NCBI GenBank assembly: GCA_017525035.1
Contig: JAFXTH010000005.1
Location: 25 to 64,024, forward strand
DNA from: Bacilli bacterium
Lineage (GTDB): Bacteria; Bacillota_I; Bacilli_A; RF39; UBA660
Direction: 5' to 3'
DNA length: 64,000 bases
Positions within the stretch are counted from its first letter, which is position 1. Each line of letters starts with the position of its first letter. Of the stretch, positions 40,017-41,090 are shown in pieces. The notes below the pieces were generated by a model. That model saw only the letters and a program-made list of their open reading frames with translations. It did not search any database and had not been told where the DNA came from. The translations under genes were made by a program, and so were the position numbers.

Positions 40017-41090
40017 ATGACAGTTGTGTCAATGAATTATTTATTAGAAGCAGGAGTTCACTTCGGACATCAAAAAAGAAGATGGAACCCAAAAATGAAG
40101 GAGTATATCTATACTTCAAGAGATGATATTTATATTATCGACTTACAAAAAACTCAAAAGAAGATTGAAGAAGCTTATGAAGCAATGAAAGAAATTGCAG
40201 CAAATGAAGGAAAAATCTTATTTGTTGGAACTAAAAAACAAGCTCAAGAAGCTGCAGAAGAATGTGCTACAAGAACTAACATGTATTTCGTAAATGAAAG
40301 ATGGTTAGGTGGAACACTTACTAACTTCAAAACAATCAGATCAAGAATCAAAAGATTAGACGAAATCGAAAAGATGGAAGCTGATGGAACATTCGAAAAA
40401 TATGAAAAGAAAGAAGTTATTAAATTCAAAAAGGAATACGAAAAGTTAAATAAAAACTTAAGAGGAATCAGAGAAATGAAGAAACTTCCTGATGCTTTAG
40501 TTATCGTAGATCCAAGAAAAGAAGAAATAGCTATTAAAGAAGCAAGAAAATTAAATATTCCAGTATTTGGTGTTGTAGATACTAACTGTGACCCAGATAT
40601 GGTTGATTACGTTATTCCAGGAAATGACGATGCTGTAAGAAGTGTTAAATTAATGATTGGAGCACTTACAAATGCTATCGCAGAAGTAAATGGAAACGAA
40701 ATTATCGACTATGTTACTGAAGAAGATAAGAATAAAGCTGCAGGAAAAGGAAAGAAAGACGACGTTAATGAATTCGTTGAATCTTTAGAAAGAGAAATCA
40801 AAGTTGAAAAAGAAGAAAAAGAAGATTCTTCTGAAAAGACTATAAAAGCTAAGAAACCTGCAAAAAAAGAAACTGTAAAAGAAGAAAAAGTTGAAGAAGT
40901 AAAAGAAGAAGAACCTAAGAAAGAAAAGAAAGCAGCTCCTAAAAAAGCAGCTAAAGAAGAAAAAGCTGAAGAGAAGAAAGATTTTGGAGCAATGACTTTA
41001 ACTGAATTAAAAGAAGCAGCTAAAGAACAAGGAATCAAAGGTTACTCTAAAATGAAAAAAGACGAACTTGTTACAGAATTAAGCAAATAA
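40017..41090 (+). CDS. rpsB: 30S ribosomal protein S2 with a ~120 aa charged C-terminal extension ending in a Rho_N/SAP-like helix-extension-helix motif
   Basis: [24 protein letters not shown] and VDTNCDPD are the S2 core (~235 aa). A K/E-rich tail follows, ending in [32 protein letters not shown]. Confidence 0.9.

Follow-up and report, generated by a model that had tools for sequence, protein, structure and literature searches.

The rpsB gene of the window analysed here (the whole stretch of DNA under study, 64,000 nucleotides in length) encodes a ribosomal protein uS2 in which a normal uS2 body is followed by a charge-balanced spacer predicted to be disordered and then, at the C-terminus, by a Rho_N-type head predicted to fold, an arrangement established by sequence comparison and structural modelling. 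The source is an uncultured, small-genome gut bacterium whose genome of 1.25 Mb, in 24 contigs, is 88% complete. Several proteins bear this head in the lineage, and S2 is, judging from the distribution of matches across genomes, the carrier that is retained when others lose it. The features on which the analysis rests are the following.

39326..39928, + strand: rplT (ribosomal protein L20), 200 aa, directly upstream of rpsB (Pfam Ribosomal_L20 only)
40003..40007, + strand: AGGAG, Shine-Dalgarno-like, 9 nt before the rpsB ATG (read from the sequence)
40017..41090, + strand: rpsB (ribosomal protein uS2), 357 aa plus stop codon (open reading frame list, TIGR01011, Pfam)
40017..40721, + strand: S2 core, residues 1-235 (Pfam, AlphaFold2 pLDDT, substitution counts)
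40722..40979, + strand: Lys/Glu-rich polyampholyte linker, residues 236-321 (charge, pLDDT, comparison with relatives)
40980..41087, + strand: C-terminal Rho_N-type helix-extension-helix (HeH) module, residues 322-357 (Rho_N score, pLDDT, PDB profile matches)
40998..41030 and 41058..41084, + strand: predicted helices of the HeH module, residues 328-338 and 348-356 (AlphaFold2)
41110..41991, + strand: tsf (EF-Ts), next gene of the operon, 19 nt downstream of rpsB (open reading frame list; recognised from its N-terminal sequence)
41993..42015, + strand: terminator-like hairpin with T-run closing rpsB-tsf

Architecture of the S2 protein

The translated reading frame is identical to the protein quoted in the initial annotation, and the operon context is of a conserved type, with an EF-Ts-like reading frame and then a terminator-like hairpin downstream of rpsB. 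The body is matched by Pfam Ribosomal_S2 (PF00318) over residues 9-223 (336.8 bits, E 5e-101, cut-off 26.1) and by NCBIfam TIGR01011 over residues 3-224 (347.8 bits, cut-off 76.3, model positions 1-222 of 225); given where these two models end, the core boundary near residue 235 proposed from the sequence is a fair one. AlphaFold2, supplied with an 80-sequence alignment, models the core at a pLDDT of about 90 up to approximately residue 230, and comparison with four relatives reveals 2-31 amino-acid changes and 24-77 synonymous changes in it. The NCBIfam model of an S2 'sunset domain variant' (NF051451) reaches 302.4 bits, below its cut-off of 710, and it is the core that carries this match.

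The Lys/Glu-rich, low-complexity stretch of about 85 residues that had been described beyond the core corresponds to residues 236-321, of which 64% are charged (27 K, 24 E and 5 D) with a net charge of -1. The same model assigns pLDDT values below 50 to residues 243-257 and 260-319, which are accordingly predicted to be disordered. Short tandem repeats of 9-17 nt are found within this spacer, and against four relatives it evolves fast, with replacements of up to 50% as well as in-frame insertions and deletions. Among relatives at large, the spacers range from 28 to 122 residues (median 60), are approximately 60% charged and have a net charge near zero (median 0), with the frame open throughout these variable lengths.

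For the C-terminal end, the search with Pfam Rho_N (PF07498) that had been suggested as a check returned a significant match to residues 325-355, amounting to 37.1 bits in the whole protein (E 3e-9), 40.1 bits in a six-frame search of the genome and 42.2 bits in the isolated tail, against a cut-off of 24.9, and beginning at model position 4 of 43. The Rho_N/SAP-like HeH tail claimed for S2 is borne out by these scores and by its retention in relatives (see below), with one correction: the tail start given as 40981 is out of frame by one base, and the last 36 residues are encoded by 40980..41087. The SAP model (PF02037, cut-off 23.9) stays below threshold with the whole protein (16.7 bits) and exceeds it slightly with the tail taken alone (25.3 bits). 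The tail falls far short of the 509-bit cut-off of the Rho model itself (TIGR00767), scoring only 17.3 bits, and lacks the OB-fold and RecA-type ATPase that follow the N-terminal bundle in Rho.

On the structural level, residues 321-357 are modelled by AlphaFold2 as a pair of helices flanking an extended loop, with pLDDT 78-88 within the whole protein, and the head folded alone reaches about 90. Foldseek comparison of the head with the PDB yields almost exclusively Rho N-terminal domains as top matches (rmsd about 1.0 Å over 34 columns, TM 0.69), followed by the SAP domains of FAN1 and of Ku70, the latter in complex with a nucleosome; none of these matches attains statistical significance (E above 1), a consequence of the small size of the head. 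A profile built from the head sequences matches the Ku70 SAP domain (1jjr) at E 2e-9, Mycobacterium tuberculosis Rho (7oqh) at E 1.6e-7 and Rho 8hsj at E 3.5e-6, and found the module in none of the solved ribosome structures in the PDB.

Across 73 S2 heads, L18, A22, K34 and K35 are invariant, while T14, K23, G29, Y30, S31, E37, L38 and L42 are conserved at 90% or more, and the Rho_N signature of a helix-1 leucine, a loop glycine, a basic pair before helix 2 and an E-L pair is conserved. The net charge of the head averages +2.5 in these relatives and is +1 here. Its divergence from four relatives lies between that of the core and that of the spacer, and the conservation of the S2 tail is apparently that of a selected, folded head carried on a length-tolerant spacer.

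Conservation and the question of an artefact

Searched against 5.8 billion proteins, the tail region matched 401 clusters at E of 0.001 or below, and 119 of the 120 clusters listed, out of these 401, bear precomputed PF00318 and PF07498 labels. Eighty related loci were fetched from species-representative genomes, comprising uncultured gut 'Bacilli' and 'Tenericutes', Acholeplasma sp. CAG:878, Candidatus Fimihabitans and Candidatus Coprosoma; 74 contain complete S2 reading frames, and all but one of these end in the same C-terminal module. The single exception (1 of 74, locus L071) has instead a Lys/Ala/Val tail of about 150 residues, with a linker of net charge +11 and a net +12 over the last 34 residues. 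Homology searches additionally place the S2-Rho_N fusion in the cultured Acholeplasma laidlawii (342 aa) and in A. hippikon.

A sequencing frameshift joining two reading frames, which the initial annotation had itself raised, or a selectively neutral growth of low-complexity sequence that resembles the motif by accident, could be imagined as the origin of such a tail, the more so as the linker is of low complexity, short tandem repeats expand and contract easily and the assembly is a draft of metagenome type in 24 contigs. However, the 73 relatives share the architecture in independent assemblies, the complete A. laidlawii genome shares it too, nearly all listed database clusters bear both domains, the frame stays open over linkers of variable length and the positions that define the fold do not vary, so that such an origin is extremely improbable. 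Because the architecture is conserved among relatives, databases and A. laidlawii, a frameshift fusion is ruled out as far as the comparative data reach.

The fusion is not confined to Bacilli, given that an S2 of 351 aa labelled as an Ignavibacteriae bacterium (metagenome, P0297) also bears PF07498. Full-text literature searches found no study of bacterial ribosomal HeH tails, in agreement with the earlier statement that the fusion was not known to have been characterised; it is, however, already on record, both as joint PF00318 and PF07498 labels and in A. laidlawii. The module, its fold and its promiscuity are thus of known kinds, and the fusion is present in public domain annotations.

Distribution of the head on other proteins

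The genome studied here contains exactly one Rho_N match, that on S2, and its own FtsH (652 aa, C15:92525..94480, outside the window) has an acidic tail (..EEKEEEEQDSEDEDED) without a HeH head. In a sample of the class, Rho_N matches occur in 203 of 400 genomes, but Rho in only 9 of 399, and the module must therefore sit mostly on other proteins. Twenty carriers were extracted from class-mates and eight of them scanned against Pfam, revealing the head at the C-terminus of FtsH and of L20, on an OppF-like ABC ATPase, on three membrane proteins and on additional S2 proteins with Pro-rich spacers. Further carriers include a four-domain S1 protein of 536 aa (L090, G087:C23:3200-8200), in which an Ala/Pro/Lys spacer is followed by the same head at the end, and an RpoD-type sigma factor of 630 aa (L089, G047:C1:36200-41300) with two N-terminal Rho_N heads in place of region 1.1. 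In every extracted carrier the module is terminal, after or before a low-complexity linker. On a much wider scale, the head profile matched 12,611 clusters in a library of 1.84 billion representatives; the best 150 of these matches (P0121-P0270) are arrays of 2-10 tandem heads in proteins of 80 to 3693 aa.

Within the family of the source organism, each of 49 genomes from 48 genera has at least one Rho_N match, and when carriers are classed by the length of their frames, a proxy that was validated against the extracted carriers, S2 is counted in 47 of 49, L20 in 34 of 49 and FtsH in 29 of 49. The two apparent S2 exceptions are frames cut by contig ends, and in all ten genomes with a single carrier class that class is S2. 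Lineage-specific extensions of ribosomal proteins are known, and few of them are folded, portable domains; here, a SAP/Rho_N-type module is held on long leashes of S2 in essentially the whole of a large gut-bacterial family.

Rho (TIGR00767) is lacking in this genome, in all 61 family genomes examined and in nine further carriers of the S2-HeH fusion, Acholeplasma included, and about half of the class sample lacks both Rho and any Rho_N match. Compensation for the loss of Rho was considered as a role for the S2 head and set aside: since Rho is rare in the class sample and about half of that sample has neither Rho nor Rho_N, the co-occurrence of head and Rho absence is uninformative. As for S1, five single S1-domain matches occur in this genome, in frames of 124, 745, 729, 724 and 391 aa, and no multi-domain S1 (rpsA) was detected in an assembly that, being only 88% complete, may have missed it. 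The idea of the S2 head as an S1 surrogate, considered in view of this lack of multi-domain S1, was also set aside; in one class-mate, an S1-domain protein itself bears the head.

Relationship between the L20 and S2 heads

The gene directly upstream provides a further perspective on how these heads evolve. L20 of this genome ends in an 82-residue tail of K, A, E and T with a net charge of +16 and without a HeH head, and no remnant of a head could be found after its stop codon in any frame. Among the 80 related loci, 31 have rplT immediately before rpsB, with a head on L20 in most of these; the head-less cationic tail is common only to the closest relatives (L002 and L003) together with L005 and L022, and L050 has a short tail only, also without a head. 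As L20 of most relatives with this rplT-rpsB gene order has the head and only a few share the cationic tail, loss or replacement of the L20 head in this genus is probable. A stretch of about 100 nt is similar between the L20 tail (39753..39852) and the S2 spacer (40877..40975), with the same 12-residue peptide encoded in both; this could be a trace of tail exchange or just low-complexity composition, and it is given little weight because the region is of low complexity.

In the 20 loci with both heads, L20 and S2 heads are more alike within a genome (identity 0.69, a value that no permutation out of 10,000 attained) than across genomes (0.57). Such likeness would fit a protein-protein adaptor, whether the head bound one shared partner, such as RNA polymerase, NusA or an RNase, or formed head-to-head links among ribosomes and FtsH, and the presence of one module on functionally unrelated carriers points in the same direction. 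The N-terminal domains of Rho touch RNA polymerase and NusA in cryo-EM structures of pre-termination complexes, which can be counted for an adaptor as well. RHON1, a Rho-N protein of Arabidopsis, dimerises and binds RNase E, although these contacts are not assigned to its Rho-N motif (PMC3458557). However, the most alike pairs show about the same identity at the nucleotide level as at the amino-acid level (L010, 97% aa and 96% nt; L006, 91% and 85%; L023, 91% and 87%), with same-genome heads in L010, L006, L023, L012 and L016 being 79-97% identical in protein and 84-96% in DNA, so that gene conversion rather than co-evolution with a partner probably keeps the adjacent heads alike. Furthermore, L20 and S2 carry two different head types within each of L004, L008, L017 and L019, and the 'VTG' type otherwise typical of L20 occurs on S2 of some genomes. 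An adaptor function is, on this evidence, rather improbable.

Possible function of the head

On the 30S subunit, uS2 occupies the solvent-facing side between the head and body of the subunit, close to where S1 docks and where the mRNA exits. The initial annotation's 'entry and exit side' was therefore imprecise. From this position, a leash of 86 residues could sweep much of the solvent face of the 30S subunit, which makes the catching of RNA or of a coupling factor physically reasonable.

The interpretation preferred here, with moderate confidence, is that the S2 module acts as a tethered nucleic-acid-binding head with RNA as the favoured ligand. It would bind weakly and without sequence specificity, RNA in preference to DNA, and on its long leash at the 30S solvent side would concentrate mRNA or nascent transcript locally or, alternatively, keep ribosomes near nucleic acid, in a lineage without Rho and without a detectable multi-domain S1. 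Several observations point to nucleic acid as the ligand. The nearest solved relatives are associated with it, and three of the carriers (S2, L20 and the S1-domain protein) are RNA-bound. Experimentally, the last 40 residues of Arabidopsis RHON1, comprising its C-terminal Rho-N motif, shift RNA in gel assays, including 16S and 23S rRNA fragments and mRNA regions (PMC3458557). Additionally, spacers are neutral where a head is present, as opposed to the strongly cationic tails that lack one (S2 of L071, L20 here), a contrast that fits a polyanionic ligand, although the cases are few and phylogenetically clustered. Weighing against a nucleic-acid ligand is the only mildly basic character of the head (+1 here), and against RNA in particular that FtsH, the ABC ATPase and the membrane proteins are not RNA-associated, so that what all carriers bind might instead be DNA or a protein.

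The possibility of DNA deserves separate consideration. As a SAP-like binder of double-stranded DNA, the head would anchor S2, L20, FtsH and some membrane proteins on the AT-rich chromosome, thereby organising nucleoid-associated, transcription-coupled translation and membrane insertion. The best PDB profile match is indeed the DNA-binding SAP domain of Ku70, likewise C-terminal on a flexible linker, and SAP structures of FAN1 and of the Ku70-nucleosome complex are among the Foldseek matches (at E above 1); the S2 tail by itself scores above the Pfam SAP threshold, the module is also found on RpoD, FtsH and membrane proteins, and the head-less tails consist of AKK/PAKK repeats resembling histone H1. 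Set against these points, the Rho_N score is far above the SAP score, RNA-bound proteins (S2, L20 and the S1-domain protein) are among the carriers, and the sole isolated Rho-N motif tested so far, that of RHON1, binds RNA (PMC3458557). A DNA tether is accordingly regarded as unlikely.

Whatever the ligand, a role peculiar to S2, in which RNA or a coupling factor would be recruited at the mRNA channel, loses weight from the presence of the same module on L20, FtsH, S1-domain, RpoD, ABC-ATPase and membrane proteins of related genomes. The head on S2, L20, FtsH and the membrane proteins probably serves instead a generic tethering to a polyanion or shared partner. A broader and more speculative extension, which we consider rather doubtful, is that the S2, L20 and FtsH heads form one system holding both ribosomal subunits and a membrane quality-control protease on a shared polyanionic scaffold, be it nascent RNA or the AT-rich nucleoid, and thereby physically organise transcription, translation and membrane insertion as coupled processes; the indispensable carrier would be S2, because it is kept when others are lost. 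This extension would apply to Rho-less, S1-poor, small-genome Bacilli, namely this family, Acholeplasma and others.

Significance

The most useful additions of this analysis are the set of carriers (S2, L20, FtsH and others), the retention of the head on S2 when others lose it, and a cultivable organism for tests. Should binding of RNA or DNA by the head prove true, reduced genomes devoid of Rho and of a canonical S1 would have in it a simple, built-in means of holding ribosomes on their templates, with a bearing on transcription-translation coupling outside model organisms. Genome annotation should treat such tails as genuine domains rather than as suspected frameshift fusions.

Comparison with known systems

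A close structural counterpart of the S2 head is the N-terminal helix bundle of Rho (PF07498; 1a8v, 2a8v, 7oqh, 8hsj), which belongs to the same sequence family, has the helix-extended loop-helix fold predicted here and has the L..L, G, K/R-K and E-L-I positions in common with it. The surroundings differ, in that the Rho module packs against an OB-fold RNA-binding domain and a RecA ATPase, whereas that of S2 stands at the extreme C-terminus on a disordered leash, in an organism and a whole family without Rho.

Also comparable is RHON1 of the Arabidopsis chloroplast, where a C-terminal Rho-N motif likewise follows a highly charged region and operates in a gene-expression system of bacterial type (PMC3458557). 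RHON1, in contrast to the ribosomal protein S2, is a free factor partnering RNase E, with an acidic charged region and encoded by a eukaryotic nuclear gene. The C-terminal SAP domain of Ku70 (1jjr, 1jeq) offers the same layout of folded core, flexible linker and terminal HeH and contacts nucleic acid; the setting there, however, is eukaryotic DNA repair with a DNA ligand, and the S2 tail scores better on Rho_N than on SAP.

Within bacteria, a related architecture is described by NF011109 (PRK14537, '50S ribosomal protein L20/unknown domain fusion protein'), positions 192-224 of whose 232 align with the S2 head and whose tail region aligns with the S2 linker; L20 of most relatives has exactly this architecture. 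S2 is no member of that family, scoring 22.9 bits (from the tail only) against a cut-off of 187, and the carrier in NF011109 is L20, a protein of the large subunit.

A further parallel is S2 of Acholeplasma laidlawii, which has the same three-part organisation with PF00318 and PF07498 in an organism without Rho, and which is annotated just as '30S ribosomal protein S2'. It belongs to a different family of the class, and its linker is rich in Pro, Lys and Val rather than Lys and Glu. Because this cultured organism shares the S2 architecture, the proposed role of the S2 head is open to experimental test.
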